DNA from: an uncultured Candidatus Saccharibacteria bacterium
GTDB taxonomy: Bacteria > Patescibacteriota > Minisyncoccia > Minisyncoccales > RBG-13-42-11
Assembly: GCA_964501545.1 (NCBI GenBank)
Contig: CAZCSH010000003.1
Span: forward strand, 1-25,983
Direction of reading: 5' to 3'
Length of the DNA: 25,983 bases
The notes below the pieces were generated by a model that saw only the letters and a list, made by a program, of their open reading frames with translations, did no database searches and was not told where the DNA came from. Within the stretch, counting starts at the first letter, position 1; each line of letters opens with the position of its first letter. The position numbers and the translations under genes were made by a program. Of this stretch, positions 14,659 to 25,983 are shown one piece after another.

Positions 14659-14739
14659 CCCCGTTAGAAATTACCGGATTAATGGGGTCAATGAAATCAA
14701 TTACTATGAAGAGAATAAAAAACCAAATTTCTAACGGGG
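14659..14739 (+). mobile_element. MITE-like element 1 (81 bp), 14-bp TIRs, TAGA target duplication
   Basis: Ends CCCCGTTAGAAATT ... AATTTCTAACGGGG. TAGA at 14655-14658 and 14740-14743. Excision restores M-A-K-K-L-E-Q-F-N-M from ATG 14642. Confidence 0.88.
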
Positions 14740-15308: not shown

Positions 15309-16585
15309 ACTTTTTGAATTTGGGCGCCAAGCTTTCTAAGTTTTTCTTCTATCTTTTCGTGACCTCTCTCTATGTGAGAGATGTTTTCAATTAAAGTTTT
15401 GCCTTTGGCGGCGAGACCCGCCAGAATAAGAGCTGTCCCTGATCTAATATCTAAGGCGTTTAGTTTCTTACCAATTAATTCTGTTTTACCAAAGATTAGA
15501 GCTCGGTGAGGGTCAGTGATTTCAATGTCAGCCCCCATTTTTCTTAACTCTTGGAGATATTGGAATCTGTTTTCGTAGAGAGGCTCATGAATTAAACTTT
15601 TACCTTGAGCTTGGGTTAAGAGAACGGAGGTTTGAGGTTGGAGATCAGTTGGGAAGCCAGGATAGGGGAGAACTTGGATTTTTGTGCTTTTGAATTCTGT
15701 TGAAGGTTTTACTAAAATTTCATTGTTAGAAATTTCAAAATTGACTCCAATCTCCTTCATTTTTTCTAGAAACATTATTAAGTGTTCACTATTTACCCCC
15801 TTGATTGTTCCCTGACCCCCGGTAGCTGCCAGAGCAATTAAGAAAGTGCCAGCCTCCAAAAGATCAGGTGAGATAGTAAATTCTGCTCCACTTAAAGTTT
15901 CTTTTCCCTCAATTGAGATTGTATGGGTGCCTATCCCTTGAATGTTGAGCCCCATTTTCTCTAAAAACTTTCCTAAATCCTGAACTTGGGGTTCAGCTGC
16001 TGCCATTTCAATCTTTGTCTTTCCCTTAGATAAAGCAGCTAACATCATTAAGATTTCGGTAGCTGTTACTGAGAACTCTTTTAAGACAATTCTTTTTCCT
16101 TCCAAGGCTTCTGGGGTTTCAAGATAATAAAAACCTTGTTTTTCTTCTACCTGAACACCAAAGTCTTTTAAAGCCTGGAGGTGGGTAGAAATAGGTCTCA
16201 GCCCTATTTCGTCACCTCCTGGATGAGGGATTTTGAGTTTTTTGAATCTAGCTAAAAGAGGGCCTATTAAGAGAATCGAAACCCTCATTTTCTCAAAGAG
16301 GTTAGTTGGAATGTTTTCTGGGTTAATATTAGCTGGATTGATTTTAACTTTTCTTTCTCCCAGCCATTCAACTTCCACCCCCAAAGATTTTAAAATCTCA
16401 ATTTGGTCCAAGACATCAGTTACTTTTGGCAGGTTATCAATAATGGAGGGTTCTTTGGCAAGCAAAACAGCTGCCAAAACGGCGCCAGCTGAGTTTTTGT
16501 AACCCGAAATTTCGACTTCTCCCTGAAGGGGAACGCCGCCCTTTATTAAAAACTTACCTTGCCCCGTTAGAAATTTTTGATTCAT
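15305..16585 (-). CDS. murA: UDP-N-acetylglucosamine 1-carboxyvinyltransferase (Cys115-to-Asp type)
   Basis: Motifs GEVEISGYKNS, PGGDEIGLRP, SVTATE, AAAEPQV, YPGFPTDLQ, YENRF and DIRSG. The start lies inside MITE 2. Confidence 0.95.
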   Translation of the reverse strand: MNQKFLTGQGKFLIKGGVPLQGEVEISGYKNSAGAVLAAVLLAKEPSIIDNLPKVTDVLDQIEILKSLGVEVEWLGERKVKINPANINPENIPTNLFEKMRVSILLIGPLLARFKKLKIPHPGGDEIGLRPISTHLQALKDFGVQVEEKQGFYYLETPEALEGKRIVLKEFSVTATEILMMLAALSKGKTKIEMAAAEPQVQDLGKFLEKMGLNIQGIGTHTISIEGKETLSGAEFTISPDLLEAGTFLIALAATGGQGTIKGVNSEHLIMFLEKMKEIGVNFEISNNEILVKPSTEFKSTKIQVLPYPGFPTDLQPQTSVLLTQAQGKSLIHEPLYENRFQYLQELRKMGADIEITDPHRALIFGKTELIGKKLNALDIRSGTALILAGLAAKGKTLIENISHIERGHEKIEEKLRKLGAQIQKV

Positions 16586-16628
16586 AGATTTTACTGAAAT
16601 ACCCCGCTATTTAAAATTTCTAACGGGG
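16562..16628 (-). mobile_element. MITE-like element 2 (67 bp), 16-bp TIRs, CTTG target duplication
   Basis: Ends CCCCGTTAGAAATTTT ... AAAATTTCTAACGGGG. CTTG at 16558-16561 and 16629-16632. Excision restores M-Q-G-K-F-L-I-K-G-G from minus-strand ATG 16635. Confidence 0.9.
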
Positions 16629-16629
16629 C

Positions 16630-16658
16630 TTGCATCCTTCACTTTTTTACTCTACAAT
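16630..16658 (+). promoter_or_regulatory. Sigma70-type promoter for the yvcK-glmU-like operon
   Basis: TTGCAT (16630-16635), 17-nt spacer, TACAAT (16653-16658), 12 nt before ATG 16671. Confidence 0.65.
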
Positions 16659-23582: not shown

Positions 23583-23604
23583 ATTGTTTTAACTTTATCA
23601 TTTA

Positions 23605-23646
23605 CTGAGTGTCAGCGAAAGTGAAGAAGAGAGTCTTCTCTTCGAC
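23605..23646 (+). repeat. Hairpin repeat family A, intergenic between topA and mfd
   Basis: CTGAGTGTCAGCGAAAGTGAAGAAGAGA-GTCT-TCTCTTCGAC. Confidence 0.75.
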
Positions 23647-23669
23647 TGGTTTTTATTTTTTCTACAGCT

Positions 23670-23720
23670 TCAGACAACACCCCGAAGCAAAACCCTCGGT
23701 TTGCTACGGGGCAGGTCTGA
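23670..23720. repeat. Imperfect long palindrome covering the mfd stop codon
   Basis: Nested stems TCAGAC/GTCTGA, CCCCG/CGGGG and AGCAAA/TTTGCT. The minus strand encodes V-R-P-A-P-stop. Confidence 0.65.
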
Positions 23721-25659
23721 CAGTTTTTAACCTATCAACAGACTCGGATAACATTTGACAGAACAAGTTTAATCCTATTCTGTTGATGTTGCCTGACTGC
23801 TCTTTCCCCAGAATGTTGCCAGCCCCTCTGATTTCCAAATCCCTTAAGGCAATTTTATAGCCAGATCCCAGAGCTTCAGCCTCTTTCAAAGCATCAAGTC
23901 TCATCTTAGCTTTTTCTGAGAGGCGGTTGCCAGAGAGAAAGAAAGCCGTAGCCTGAATGTGCGACCTACCAATTCTTCCTTTGATTTGGTAAGCCTGGGA
24001 GAGGCCAAGTTTAGTAGCATCTGCCACGATCAAAGTGTTGACATTGGGCAGGTCCAAACCGTTTTCAATAATAGTGGTAGCTACTAAAATGTCAATCTTT
24101 CTCTCTTGAAAGTCTTTCATAACCTGGACCAAGTTCTTTTCTCTCAGCCTGCCATGAGCTATACCAATTCTGGCTTTGGGCACCAGTTTTTCTAGAAGCT
24201 TTTTTGCCATCTCTATTGTTTCTACTCTGTTGTGCAAATAGTAGACCTGCCCTTTTCTTTTTAATTCGGCTGTTATTGCCTTCTTGATTGTTTTCTCTGA
24301 CCAAGGAAGGATATTGGTTTTAATAGCTAACCTGCCAAAAGGGGGAGTTTGGATTGTGCTGATATTTTTTAAAGAAGATAAAGCTAAATAGAGAGTTCTG
24401 GGAATTGGGGTGGCAGAAAGGGAAAGAACGTCTAAGGAGGCTCTCAATTTCTTTAACTTTTCTTTTTGTTTAACTCCAAATCTCTGCTCATCGTCAATCA
24501 CCAGTAATCCCAAGTTTTTAAACTCAACGTCATTAGACAGTATTCGGTGGGTACCGATAACAATGTCTGTTTTGGCCTCTTTTAATTCTTGCAGAATTTC
24601 TTTTTGCTCTTTTTTTGTCTGAAGTCGGGACAAGAGAGATATTTTAATTGGCAAATCTTTTATCCTTTCTTTTAAGTTCTCAAAGTGTTGGTTAGCTAAA
24701 ATAGTAGTAGGGCAAATCATAGCTACCTGGTATCCTGACCTGACTGCTTTAACCATTGTTCTTAGAGCCACCTCTGTTTTGCCAAAACCAACATCTCCGC
24801 AAACAATCCTGTCCATGGGCTCTGTTCCTTCCAAGTCCTCTTTTATTTCTTCTGTCGTCTGTATTTGATCTGGAGTTTCCTCGTACGGGAAAGTGCTTCT
24901 TATTTTTTCATCTATTTCTTCATCTGCTAGATAAGGAGACCGGGAAGCTACTTCTCTTTTGGCGTAGAGCTCCAAAAGCTCTCTAGCTAGCTTTTCTGCT
25001 GCTTCCTTTACTTTTCTTTTTGTTCTCTGCCAGAGGCTGGAACCCAAGCGGGAGATTTTGGGATCTGTAAAACCAACATATCTTGAGAGTTTTCTTTCCA
25101 GGCCCACTGGCACAAAGAGTTTGTCGCCCTCCGCGTAATCCAGCTGGTAATAGTCTCCTCCTTGAACCTCTGTTTTTTGCTGGTAGACACCAATCCCATG
25201 GTCAAGATGAACAAGGTAGTCGCCCTCCTTTAGCTCCTTCAAATCTGAAAAGAGCTTCTGAGACTTGAGCTTTTTTTTGAGCAGCTCTTTGGCTGTTTTT
25301 TCATCTTTTATTTCAACTGGCAGCCTTTCTATAGTTTCTATTTTATTGCCCAAAAACTCAAAACGGAGAGCAGAGTTTCTATTAATTGGAAAAACATCTA
25401 CTGTTCCTCCTCTTTGGCTGAACTCGCCTGCTTCTGTCACTTGATAAACCTTTTCATAACCTAACTCATCCAACCTCCTTAAAAAGAAAGAAACTTGGAA
25501 GCTTTGGTCTTTTTCCAGATAAAGGGTATTGTCTTCAAAAAAGGACTGGGTCTTTCTGGCGGTCAGGATTTTGTTTATATTCTGTTCCATCCAAAGATTG
25601 TCTCTCTCTAAGAAATAAGGTGTAATACCGACTATTAATATTTTTTGAAGAGTATTCAT
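23704..25659 (-). CDS. mfd: Truncated transcription-repair coupling factor (UvrB-interaction + RID/CarD + SF2 translocase + TRG; no C-terminal TRCF domain)
   Basis: Motifs EFSQRGGTVDVF, EGDYLVHLDHGIG, FPYEETPDQ, CGDVGFGKTEVA, DDEQRFG, SATPIPRTL, YQIKGRIGR and DLEIRGAGNILGKEQSG. Confidence 0.9.
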   Translation of the reverse strand: MNTLQKILIVGITPYFLERDNLWMEQNINKILTARKTQSFFEDNTLYLEKDQSFQVSFFLRRLDELGYEKVYQVTEAGEFSQRGGTVDVFPINRNSALRFEFLGNKIETIERLPVEIKDEKTAKELLKKKLKSQKLFSDLKELKEGDYLVHLDHGIGVYQQKTEVQGGDYYQLDYAEGDKLFVPVGLERKLSRYVGFTDPKISRLGSSLWQRTKRKVKEAAEKLARELLELYAKREVASRSPYLADEEIDEKIRSTFPYEETPDQIQTTEEIKEDLEGTEPMDRIVCGDVGFGKTEVALRTMVKAVRSGYQVAMICPTTILANQHFENLKERIKDLPIKISLLSRLQTKKEQKEILQELKEAKTDIVIGTHRILSNDVEFKNLGLLVIDDEQRFGVKQKEKLKKLRASLDVLSLSATPIPRTLYLALSSLKNISTIQTPPFGRLAIKTNILPWSEKTIKKAITAELKRKGQVYYLHNRVETIEMAKKLLEKLVPKARIGIAHGRLREKNLVQVMKDFQERKIDILVATTIIENGLDLPNVNTLIVADATKLGLSQAYQIKGRIGRSHIQATAFFLSGNRLSEKAKMRLDALKEAEALGSGYKIALRDLEIRGAGNILGKEQSGNINRIGLNLFCQMLSESVDRLKTVRPAP

Positions 25660-25747
25660 AATGTATTTTTCTCAAACCCGGGAGTAGAAATTTGACAAGT
25701 GTTTTGCAAAACAAAACACTATCGTACCGAAGGCAGTCGAATTTTCA

Positions 25748-25849
25748 CTACCGGGCAAACCAAAAGTTCCCCTTTTCCAAAAAGTAGGGGGTGATACTGC
25801 AGATTAAGGCTCTCTCTATCCTTGACCCCGTTAGAAATTTTTGATCCAT
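25748..25849 (-). pseudogene. 33-codon ORF homologous to the Mfd N-terminus (stub or upstream peptide)
   Basis: Hand translation gives MDQKFLTGSRIERALICSITPYFLEKGNFWFAR*, which aligns with KILIVGITPYFLERDNLWM of the downstream Mfd. Below the ORF-track size cutoff. Confidence 0.7.
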
Positions 25850-25928
25850 AGGCATTACCCAATAATTAATTTTAAAGCCAATAACTTATCCTTCTAAATA
25901 CCTACGAATGTAAAATTTCTAAACGGGG
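25826..25928 (-). mobile_element. MITE-like element 3 (103 bp), 16-bp TIRs (one extra base on the right), TTGA target duplication
   Basis: Ends CCCCGTTAGAAATTTT ... AAAATTTCTAAACGGGG. TTGA at 25822-25825 and 25929-25932. Excision restores M-E-L-S-R-I-E-R from minus-strand ATG 25941. Confidence 0.87.
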
Positions 25929-25956
25929 TTGACAATTCCATCTAAAATAGTATAAT
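25929..25956 (+). promoter_or_regulatory. Consensus sigma70 promoter pointing out of the window
   Basis: TTGACA (25929-25934), 16-nt spacer, TATAAT (25951-25956). Confidence 0.7.
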
Positions 25957-25983
25957 ATATATATTAAGTTCAGTCAATTTTTT

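Follow-up and report, generated by a model that had tools for sequence, protein, structure and literature searches.

A displaced 5' end upstream of mfd in an uncultured Patescibacteria genome, probably left by a head-replacement allele exchanged by homologous recombination

In this work we analysed a stretch of 25,983 nucleotides from an uncultured Candidatus Saccharibacteria bacterium (GenBank assembly GCA_964501545.1, contig CAZCSH010000003.1), hereafter called the window, in whose numbering all coordinates are given. Its (-) strand carries mfd, the gene of a short-form transcription-repair coupling factor of 651 aa (23704..25659, identified by domain and alignment matches), and directly upstream a short open reading frame (ORF), the stub, whose translation resembles the N-terminus of Mfd. 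We consider it likely that this mfd is a head-replacement indel allele, which is exchanged by homologous recombination, and that the stub is mostly unselected. The gene would carry a ~185-bp module made up of three parts: a palindromic element resembling a miniature inverted-repeat transposable element (MITE), which lies after codon 27 of the old gene, is flanked by a TTTG duplication and ends the stub with its terminal repeat; the last three codons of the old head; and a second, divergent head (MNTLQK...) with its own ATG, which would now be the translation start of Mfd. This replacement head, which we call B-type, comprises mfd codons 1-29 (25573..25659, (-) strand, MNTLQKILIVGITPYFLERDNLWMEQNINK) and was delimited by head comparison. 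The module appears to exist as an indel allele beside plain alleles with the more common, A-type head within species of a Candidatus Nealsonbacteria-like clade. Homologous recombination would pass it between alleles and lineages, the homology being provided by the stub core ATCACCCCCTACTTTTTGGAAAAGGGGAACTTTTGGTTT on one side and by the conserved KILEARKTQSFFEDN region on the other.

The stub ORF, as annotated, spans 25748..25855 on the (-) strand and reads MPMDQKFLTGSRIERALICSITPYFLEKGNFWFAR followed by a stop. Its segment RALICSITPYFLEKGNFWF (25813-25757) is identical to Mfd residues 6-24 (KILIVGITPYFLERDNLWM) at 11/19 positions, nine of the 11 identical residues are specified by different codons, and the nucleotide identity is 34/57. 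The initial annotation, made from the sequence alone, had reported the same residue and codon counts and had taken them to mean that the stub is not a recent tandem duplication; our results support this opinion. The runner-up 19-mer in all six frames of the window reached 7/19, and 30 shuffles of the window gave a maximum of 8/19. It had also been considered that the junction between stub and gene is an assembly chimera. This was rejected because five independent assemblies from JGI and ENA samples (L001-L005) are identical base for base across stub, spacer and mfd, and because in a Logan contig (L006) the same stub end is connected to mfd through a variant element. Contigs of this organism do tend to end near the locus, as a chimera would lead one to expect. 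In view of the assemblies, the shuffles and the match to a relative's N-terminus described below (E 2e-15), we regard an assembly chimera or a chance similarity as practically negligible explanations.

The 120 closest Mfd proteins all belong to Patescibacteria and are at most 78% identical to the window protein; one cluster among them is named Candidatus Nealsonbacteria. The A-type N-terminus, M[ED]LSR...LI[CV]SITPYFLEKGNFWFEKNLNKIL, was found in 69/119 relatives and the B-type N-terminus, MNTL[QH]K[IL]LIVSITPYFLEK[DN]NLWFEQNINKIL, in 28/119, C and D types being rarer. Since an outgroup sequence (L011, 65% identical) starts with M-ILSR, the A-type is regarded as the older form. The stub corresponds to the majority A-type 5' end of mfd (MxLSR...ITPYFLEKGNFWFEKN). 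Its body, S-R-I-E-R-A-L-I-C-S-I-T-P-Y-F-L-E-K-G-N-F-W-F (25757..25825, (-) strand), represents A-type codons 4-27, and it matches the N-termini of four relatives (P0014, P0016, P0090 and P0097) at 18/19 positions, compared to 11/19 for the adjacent Mfd. The initial annotation had predicted such a match to mfd of relatives, and the agreement is far above that with the neighbouring gene. When both inserted elements (see below) were removed, the stub aligned with P0016 from Met1 in BLASTP (24/31, E 2e-15). The stub is thus homologous to the same end of the gene next to it, yet closer to alleles found elsewhere. Judging from these comparisons of sequence, the stub is what an A-type mfd originally had as its 5' end, now orphaned: codons 1-27 and the residues F-E-K-N past the second element. 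The last 39 nt of the stub body are identical to the stub of L104, and 37/39 are shared with the real A-type gene of L108. It can also be seen that the A-type core ATCACCCCCTACTTTTTGGAAAAGGGGAACTTTTGGTTT (25757-25795, the same segment in L104, L107 and L108) is conserved at synonymous sites though the mfd bodies are only ~70% identical; a small CCCC/GGGG hairpin is possible in this core, and RNA structure or frequent exchange are candidate reasons for its conservation.

Two elements interrupt the old reading frame. The first, MITE 3 or el3 (25826..25928), is a 103-nt inverted-repeat element (CCCCGTTTAGAAATTT...AAATTTCTAACGGGG) flanked by a TCAA duplication, with the left copy at 25932-25929 and the right copy at 25825-25822. 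It is present in the window and in L002, and absent from L003, which represents the same strain (0 mismatches over 2846 nt downstream) and whose empty site reads ATGGAATTGTCAAGGATAGAG unbroken, with ATG GAA TTG TCA AGG ATA GAG... in frame. This empty site, together with the TCAA on both sides in the window, identifies el3 as a polymorphic MITE and the ATG at 25941-25939 as the ancestral start of the stub (ATG GAA TTG TCA A, M-E-L-S, 25929..25941, (-) strand), and the initial annotation was right on the start and on the insertion of MITE 3. The insertion of el3 split the stub after codon 4 and by chance gave an in-frame ATG: el3 supplies the ATGs at 25855 and 25849, which open the ORF that had been annotated. 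The el1-el3 family, with CCCCGTTAGAAATTT arms, has three copies in 26 kb, and in sequencing reads the k-mer depth of its terminal inverted repeat was hundreds of times that of the organism.

The second element, el4 (25677..25755), had been described as an 88-nt spacer containing a 9-bp hairpin. The hairpin (25698-25706/25712-25720, AGTGTTTTG/CAAAACACT) and the stub stop TAG (25748-25750, (-) strand) are both present. The region is, however, not a plain spacer: el4 is an inserted inverted-repeat element with a 4-bp duplication, and the homology of the stub continues beyond it with F-E-K-N. Its terminal repeats, CCCGGTAGTGAAAATTCGAC and GTCAAATTTCTACTCCCGGG, have inverted ends of ~20 nt, stand between TGGTTTG and TTTGAGAAAAAT, and include the stop codon of the stub; the TTTG copies are at 25759-25756 and 25676-25673. 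The predicted RNA fold has a free energy of -28.1 kcal/mol, those of homologous elements lie between -25 and -49 kcal/mol. Elements of three subfamilies, in both orientations, sit at exactly this position, between equal TTT(G) flanks, in L006, L008, L009, L100, L103, L104 and L106. A-type alleles read TGGTTTGAGAAAAAT without interruption (loose end at 25756), and it is through them alone that the empty site of el4 is known, every B-type allele examined having an element. Past el4 follow the remnant of the old head and the junction, TTT GAG AAA AAT (F-E-K-N), ACA TTA TGA (25656..25676, (-) strand), the TGA overlapping the mfd ATG (ATGA). If el4 and one TTTG are excised, the stub runs on as ...GNFWFEKNTL up to this stop, and F-E-K-N fits the A-type consensus. 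The new start has this stretch, 25656..25676, as its conserved A-rich leader; L008, L100 and L103 carry it in nearly identical form, and L007, L104, L106 and L009 in a similar one. Two other interpretations of el4 were rejected. An intron or a ribosome bypass would not produce an Mfd fusion, the stub joined past el4 ending as FWFEKNTL and a stop, and A-only alleles exist; an invertible switch does not fit with the window and L006 variants differing in sequence as well as in orientation. No promoter was found inside el4 or at the junction.

The population to which the window belongs is variable at this site on a background that is otherwise 100% identical. Besides the presence or absence of el3, it contains a swap of el4: in the Logan contig L006, which matches the window without a mismatch for 2511 nt downstream, the TTTG site is occupied (positions 30-112) by another subfamily member in the opposite orientation, with the inner hairpin CCCCGCCAT/ATGGCGGGG (compare window 25677-25756). 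This swap is apparently very recent and possibly occurred by conversion from another copy via the inverted ends. A third upstream variant is found in L005:1-141 (compare window 25818 onward), where the sequence upstream of AGAGAGAGCC, with the first ~9 stub codons and the promoter, is replaced by unrelated sequence that has no match in any fetched locus. The L005 junction recurs as loose ends in two sequencing runs, and may be another insertion or a rearrangement. In groundwater runs the k-mer depth of the stub core and of the junction was 100-200 times that of the organism, thus many members of the community share them, and the A-type continuation TGGTTTG-AGAAAAATCTAAATAAAATT is also present there. 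The Logan contigs were too fragmented at the locus to genotype the strain of the window; the sharing across the community was still visible.

The arrangement is not private to this genome: the order of stub, element and B-head is common to all eight B-type loci examined (the window, L007 as a partial locus, L008, L009, L100, L103, L104 and L106). In six of the seven others the same features follow each other: a promoter-like TTGAC(A/T)-N17-TATA(C/A)T, an ATG 7-9 nt on, an A-type stub, TTT(G), an element, TTTGAG(A/G)AAAAT... and the start of the B-head. The elements of these six are inverted repeats of 69-133 nt (CCCCGT...ACGGGG), and the stubs of other B-type loci read MDLSRAAIDKALICGITPYFLERGNFWF, MELSRVDFIDKVLICSIAPYFLQKGNFWF, MELSRVSLDKILICSIAPYFLEKGNFWF, MELSRLNNVLIVSITPYFLKRGNFWF and MDLSRINAIEKALIVSITPYFLEKGNFWF. 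L007, the seventh, is too short a contig to hold the full series, yet the end of its element and the junction can be recognised. TTGACA-N17-TATACT followed by ATG occurs both before uninterrupted A-type genes (L107 and L108) and before stubs (L008, L100, L103 and L104); L107 and L108 are simple, with the same promoter and ATG and no interruption. The 5' end of mfd seems to be a recurrent target, as a second, independent head doubling exists in L111 (type C), which has an A stub, an unrelated insert of ~170 nt and a new head, MKQQIKNNLNK..., and as L109 reads MKLSRTEFP and a stop, then an insert and a new ATG. As to the searches, a scan of genome contigs starting from the Mfd alignment picked up universal helicase motifs, and 78/80 loci were unrelated Mfd genes (L011 and L012 were kept as outgroups); a scan of metagenome contigs with the junction pattern gave nine matches, eight in unrelated genes and one a duplicate of L009.

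That the two heads belong to alleles rather than to clades follows from the proteins. In a tree of the Mfd body (residues >40) the B heads are scattered. P0025 (B) has no differences past residue 40 from P0044 and P0057 (A), and P0017 (B) has one or two differences from P0050 and P0052 (A), the identity in the two species together being 99.8-100%. Within a species, 14-16 of the first 40 positions distinguish an A head from a B head, and the differences cease at about codon 29, with EKNLNK in A alleles corresponding to (E/G)(Q/R)NINK in B alleles. No simple deletion or insertion would turn one allele into the other, which points to allelic replacement over ~180-300 bp. The stubs, in turn, track A-allele heads: 28/28 positions agree between the L008 stub and the head of P0050, and likewise between the L100 stub and that of P0053. 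Members of the P0025 population share an identical gene (0-1 mismatch in 1900 nt) but carry two stub haplotypes, distinguished by five single-nucleotide polymorphisms within 19 nt; they equal the heads of the A alleles P0053 and P0044. These haplotypes appear to be the footprint of recombination between module and plain allele within the stub. Between the window and other B loci, identity is 84-91% over the initial 45 nt of the B head and 68-70% over the remaining gene, which places the start of the head among the top 0-3.7% of 45-nt windows; for L008 and L103 the values are 98% and 79%. The head is thus apparently younger than the body, or more exchanged. Identical bodies, stub haplotypes and heads that are closer than the bodies all suggest that ends are exchanged via conserved flanks. 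Rather than marking a clade, the module is a widespread allele, which co-exists with plain A-type alleles within several groundwater Patescibacteria species.

These results have to be weighed against the first explanation offered in the initial annotation, here taken literally: that the genome recently took up a whole divergent mfd, which took the place of the resident gene save its 5' end. The scar is indeed there. The stub is closer to relatives than the adjacent gene is, no sampled relative exceeds 78% identity to the window Mfd body, and dprA, which in relatives lies between mfd and topA, is missing; these points speak for replacement of the gene. However, just ~29 codons differ in kind. 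The same order and junction sequence recur in seven other lineages, the difference between A and B within a species ends at about codon 29, and past the head the body of the window mfd is equally far (68-71% nt identity) from A-type and B-type loci, with no discordant block. The discordant phylogeny that had been predicted for the full gene applies to the head only, and recent replacement of the whole gene must be regarded as very improbable.

How the locus might be expressed bears on the second alternative. A promoter-like site, TTGACT-N17-TATACT (25949..25977, (-) strand, 10/12 match), ends 7 nt upstream of the ancestral ATG, and this position suggests a leaderless or near-leaderless transcript. 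We infer that transcription would start from this old promoter and proceed through the stub and the hairpin into which the element would fold, that the stub ORF could be translated and would end in the element, and that initiation of Mfd at ATG 25659, which is preceded by the A-rich and mostly unpaired TTTGAGAAAAATACATT, would be an independent event. On the opposite (+) strand, at 25929-25956, there is a perfect sigma-70-type TTGACA-N16-TATAAT (12/12), which overlaps the ancestral start of the stub and faces out of the window.

With such a layout the stub could also be a functional upstream ORF (uORF) or leader, whose translation into the 5' arm of the hairpin opens the structure, in the manner of translational coupling, or tunes read-through, or it could encode a ~30-aa peptide that mimics the Mfd N-terminus; the initial annotation had offered a selected peptide or leader as its second explanation. 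Several observations are in line with this. Six of the eight lineages keep the ATG and an open frame that always ends inside or just past the element, the el3 insertion kept an in-frame ATG, a strong hairpin ends 17 nt before the mfd ATG, the TGA of the stub overlapped this ATG before the insertion (ATGA), which is a classic coupling layout, and the A-type core is conserved even at synonymous sites. On the other hand, plain A-type alleles without any leader co-exist in the same species, so the ORF is not conserved wherever the gene occurs. The variation of the stubs equals that of co-circulating functional heads, which is predicted by recombination and not by independent constraint. The stub ATG has changed to ATT in L106, which also has indels, frameshifts and an in-frame stop, and in L111, where the stub is truncated; in the population of the window the stub has collected further insertions. 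Real A-type genes show the conservation of the core at synonymous sites as well, hence it is not specific to the stub. There is one self-contained hairpin, no terminator-like site, U-tract or alternative, mutually exclusive pairing was found, Rfam gave only noise for the region, and the region of ATG 25659 is ~50% unpaired unaided in folds of the whole leader. Attenuators and erm-type leaders also have a short ORF with a stable hairpin behind it, close before the start codon under regulation. Unlike those, the present locus lacks a terminator U-tract and alternative pairing; its ORF copies the gene's own N-terminus, co-circulating alleles do without it, and in two lineages it decays. We therefore think a functional leader or peptide unlikely, even though most of the ORFs are intact, and we conclude that the stub is a mostly unselected scar kept fresh by recombination. 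We ascribe its well-preserved look to repeated exchange with functional A-type heads and, in most lineages, to its young age, and not to any need for the peptide; where left alone, it decays or gathers insertions.

The origin of the two heads is a separate question within the preferred explanation, that of an exchanged head-replacement allele. The TTTG duplication within A-type coding sequence and the junction AAT/ACATT-ATG after codon 30 suggest either a tandem duplication that preceded the MITE insertion or a one-sided (illegitimate) joining of a foreign 5' end. In the first case an in-situ tandem duplication of ~95 bp (from -5 to codon 30) would have been followed by divergence of the downstream copy into the B head; its only rival is the capture of a foreign 5' end. 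In favour of duplication, the repeat unit is clean: the stub reaches codon 30 (FEKN), and the head restarts 5 nt before its ATG. The two heads are also homologous nearly as far as the ATG of the B head. Moreover, no stub-less B-type donor was seen in the eight loci, and the independent head doubling in L111 suggests a recurrent local process. Against it, the two copies share just 34/57 nt, tandem repeats are normally lost fast, and the ERD.LW motif of the B head resembles the outgroup L011 (ERDPLWFEEN), not the A heads, which favours capture. We would give duplication in situ somewhat less than an even chance.

It must be noted that a number of points weigh against an exchanged allele with an unselected stub. 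No RNA runs holding the sequence were found, thus the transcription start, the use of ATG 25659 and the non-translation or irrelevance of the stub are deduced. A required uORF would look just like what is seen, with six of the eight stubs keeping their ORF from ATG into the element and el3 keeping the frame. The nucleotide conservation of B-head and leader could reflect translation-initiation constraint instead of recent exchange. The A-only alleles of the same species were compared as proteins, so that breakpoints and the direction of gain or loss are unmapped. No A-only allele of the window's own species was found, the nearest A-type body being 78% identical, and no stub-less B-type gene was found among the eight loci, which leaves a foreign donor lineage undocumented. 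Finally, the subfamily of el4 has a single copy in the 26-kb window, and the mobility of el4 would follow from its structure, the flanking duplication and the variants at the site. A more far-reaching proposal, that the module is a self-propagating head-replacement cassette, which disrupts mfd but brings a spare N-terminus and start codon, and whose stub-hairpin leader may reset Mfd expression, seems to us quite doubtful. If it were true, the gene would keep working, so the module could persist and spread among Patescibacteria species; translation of a leaderless uORF might gate the downstream start, and the A/B polymorphism would be functional (expression states or N-terminal variants), not neutral.

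The protein itself is a short-form Mfd homologue, since all of the ~120 closest relatives share the short form. The domain search found UvrB_inter (PF17757, residues 46-115), CarD_TRCF_RID (PF02559, residues 143-195, E 6e-13), DEAD and Helicase_C; thus the RNA-polymerase interaction domain, the SF2 translocase module and the UvrB-homology (UvrA-binding) module are all present. In the alignment with E. coli Mfd (E 8e-158) residues 128-648 fall on 462-990 and residues 30-125 on 112-205. The full D1a-D7 architecture, an accessory feature of the family, is incomplete in this protein of 651 aa, whose alignment stops at E. coli residue 990, and the domain search gave no match to the C-terminal, autoinhibitory TRCF domain. 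The head is a D1a remnant, the sole part of D1a ahead of the UvrB-homology module. In an AlphaFold model (mean pLDDT, predicted local distance difference test, 64.7), which was used solely for the secondary structure of the head, residues 6-10 are predicted to form a beta-strand that is followed by short helices before the UvrB-homology domain (pLDDT 71-80). If this strand and these helices matter to the protein, as the model suggests, a gene interrupted at codon 27 would need a second head.

The gene order in relatives (L008, L009, L100 and L107) is pth - mfd - dprA - topA - DUF5654. In the window mfd is followed straight by topA across a gap of 121 nt (23583-23703), without dprA, and L111 and L112 likewise have no dprA there. 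Between pth and the mfd promoter of several relatives lies a conserved element of ~165 nt (L100:1111-1277, L107:1289-1455, L103:1130-1296, L109:1179-1345 and L104:1097-1270), whose 3' end is found in L002:1-63, just past window position 25983. It has a closing stem of ~24 bp (CCCTCCGGTCTACCTGCGAG/CTCGCAGATAGGCCGGAAGG) and inner hairpins, with some compensatory changes (13/52 pairs). A search in Rfam returned only noise; the element may be an undescribed structured RNA, possibly 6S-like. Repeats of another family, with TTCCCCG...CGGGGAA-like ends and a CGCTTCGCTCC motif, were seen in the stub/head insert of L111 (1290-1500) and upstream of the A-type gene of L108 (1375-1460).

The two other copies of the el1-el3 family lie within the first codons of genes as well. 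MITE el1 (14659-14739, CCCCGTTAGAAATTT ends) has the target-site duplication TAGA (14655-14658/14740-14743) and follows codon 6 of iorB, the indolepyruvate oxidoreductase beta-subunit gene, whose old start, ATGGCTAAGAAATTAGA..., overlaps the stop of the alpha-subunit gene. MITE el2 (16562-16628, CCCCGTTAGAAATTT ends), with the duplication CAAG (16629-16632/16558-16561), lies behind codon 2 of murA; this gene had its old start, ATGCAAG, at 16635 and now begins with MNQKFLTG-QGKFLIKGG. Each gives its host gene a new in-frame ATG, and the right terminal repeat is open in two of three frames.

It is interesting to compare the locus with known systems in which gene ends are displaced or split. Phages and integrative and conjugative elements (ICEs) that integrate at the ends of tRNA or protein genes carry a replacement end; the target stays functional and the displaced end is left as a partial duplicate. 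Unlike these, our module is only ~185 bp, has no integrase or cargo, and only ~100 nt, instead of a long element, separate its displaced end from the replacement. The orphan C-termini of rhs and cdiA genes are likewise displaced remnants of gene ends. Another parallel is provided by the effector/immunity arrays of Vibrio cholerae's type VI secretion system (T6SS; PMC5361080), in which the incoming variant end takes over, the old end stays as a non-expressed remnant, and exchange occurs via conserved flanks. Those arrays concern 3' toxin/immunity ends under strong diversifying selection, whereas here it is the 5' end of a housekeeping DNA-repair factor, with a remnant of ~30 codons and no apparent antagonism. 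By analogy, then, the stub resembles the displacement-orphaned ends of polymorphic toxin loci, but at the 5' end of a housekeeping gene. Homology-facilitated illegitimate recombination in natural transformation (PMC3240628) would yield a homologous gene side, an illegitimate joint such as AAT/ACATT and a retained resident 5' end. This process is a candidate for the origin alone, with no donor found; the present-day spread would need just two-sided homologous recombination.

As regards the elements, MITEs and palindromic elements such as the Rickettsia palindromic elements (RPEs), Correia and ERIC/BOX/RUP have been reviewed as small, non-coding sequences with terminal inverted repeats, short target duplications and strong hairpins (PMC10969869). 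Their insertions within ORFs are tolerated and at times fused in frame, and Correia elements can invert and influence neighbouring expression (PMC10969869). Similarly, in iorB, murA and the stub the elements el1-el3 are placed within codons 3-6 and supply in-frame ATGs, and el4 occurs in both orientations. Unlike RPEs, which are read through into protein, el4 ends the upstream frame, and the gene would survive via a second head downstream. All four elements have terminal inverted repeats and 4-bp duplications, TAGA in el1, CAAG in el2, TCAA in el3 and TTTG in el4, and for el3 an intact empty site is known from L003. In structural terms they thus conform to the definition of a MITE, and the terminal repeat CCCCGT(T)AG... 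with the 4-bp duplications could be matched to no element family that we could name. No transposase gene was found in the 26-kb window, the search being confined to it and not extended to whole genomes, and nothing relevant was found in the literature on MITEs in Patescibacteria.

The locus offers an example, at the level of populations, of how genes outlive insertions at their 5' ends in the tiny, MITE-rich genomes of Patescibacteria. The survival routes would be start codons supplied by the element, as in murA and iorB, or a duplicated or replacement head, as in mfd, and the repaired alleles would then cross species by recombination. For annotation, this accounts for the incompatible N-terminal types of Mfd in the clade, for small 'hypothetical' ORFs upstream of the gene and for contig breaks. 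Should the module alter how Mfd is expressed or the interface formed by its N-terminus, transcription-coupled repair would have a natural switch, of the on/off kind or between variants, in organisms that are still out of reach of genetic manipulation.

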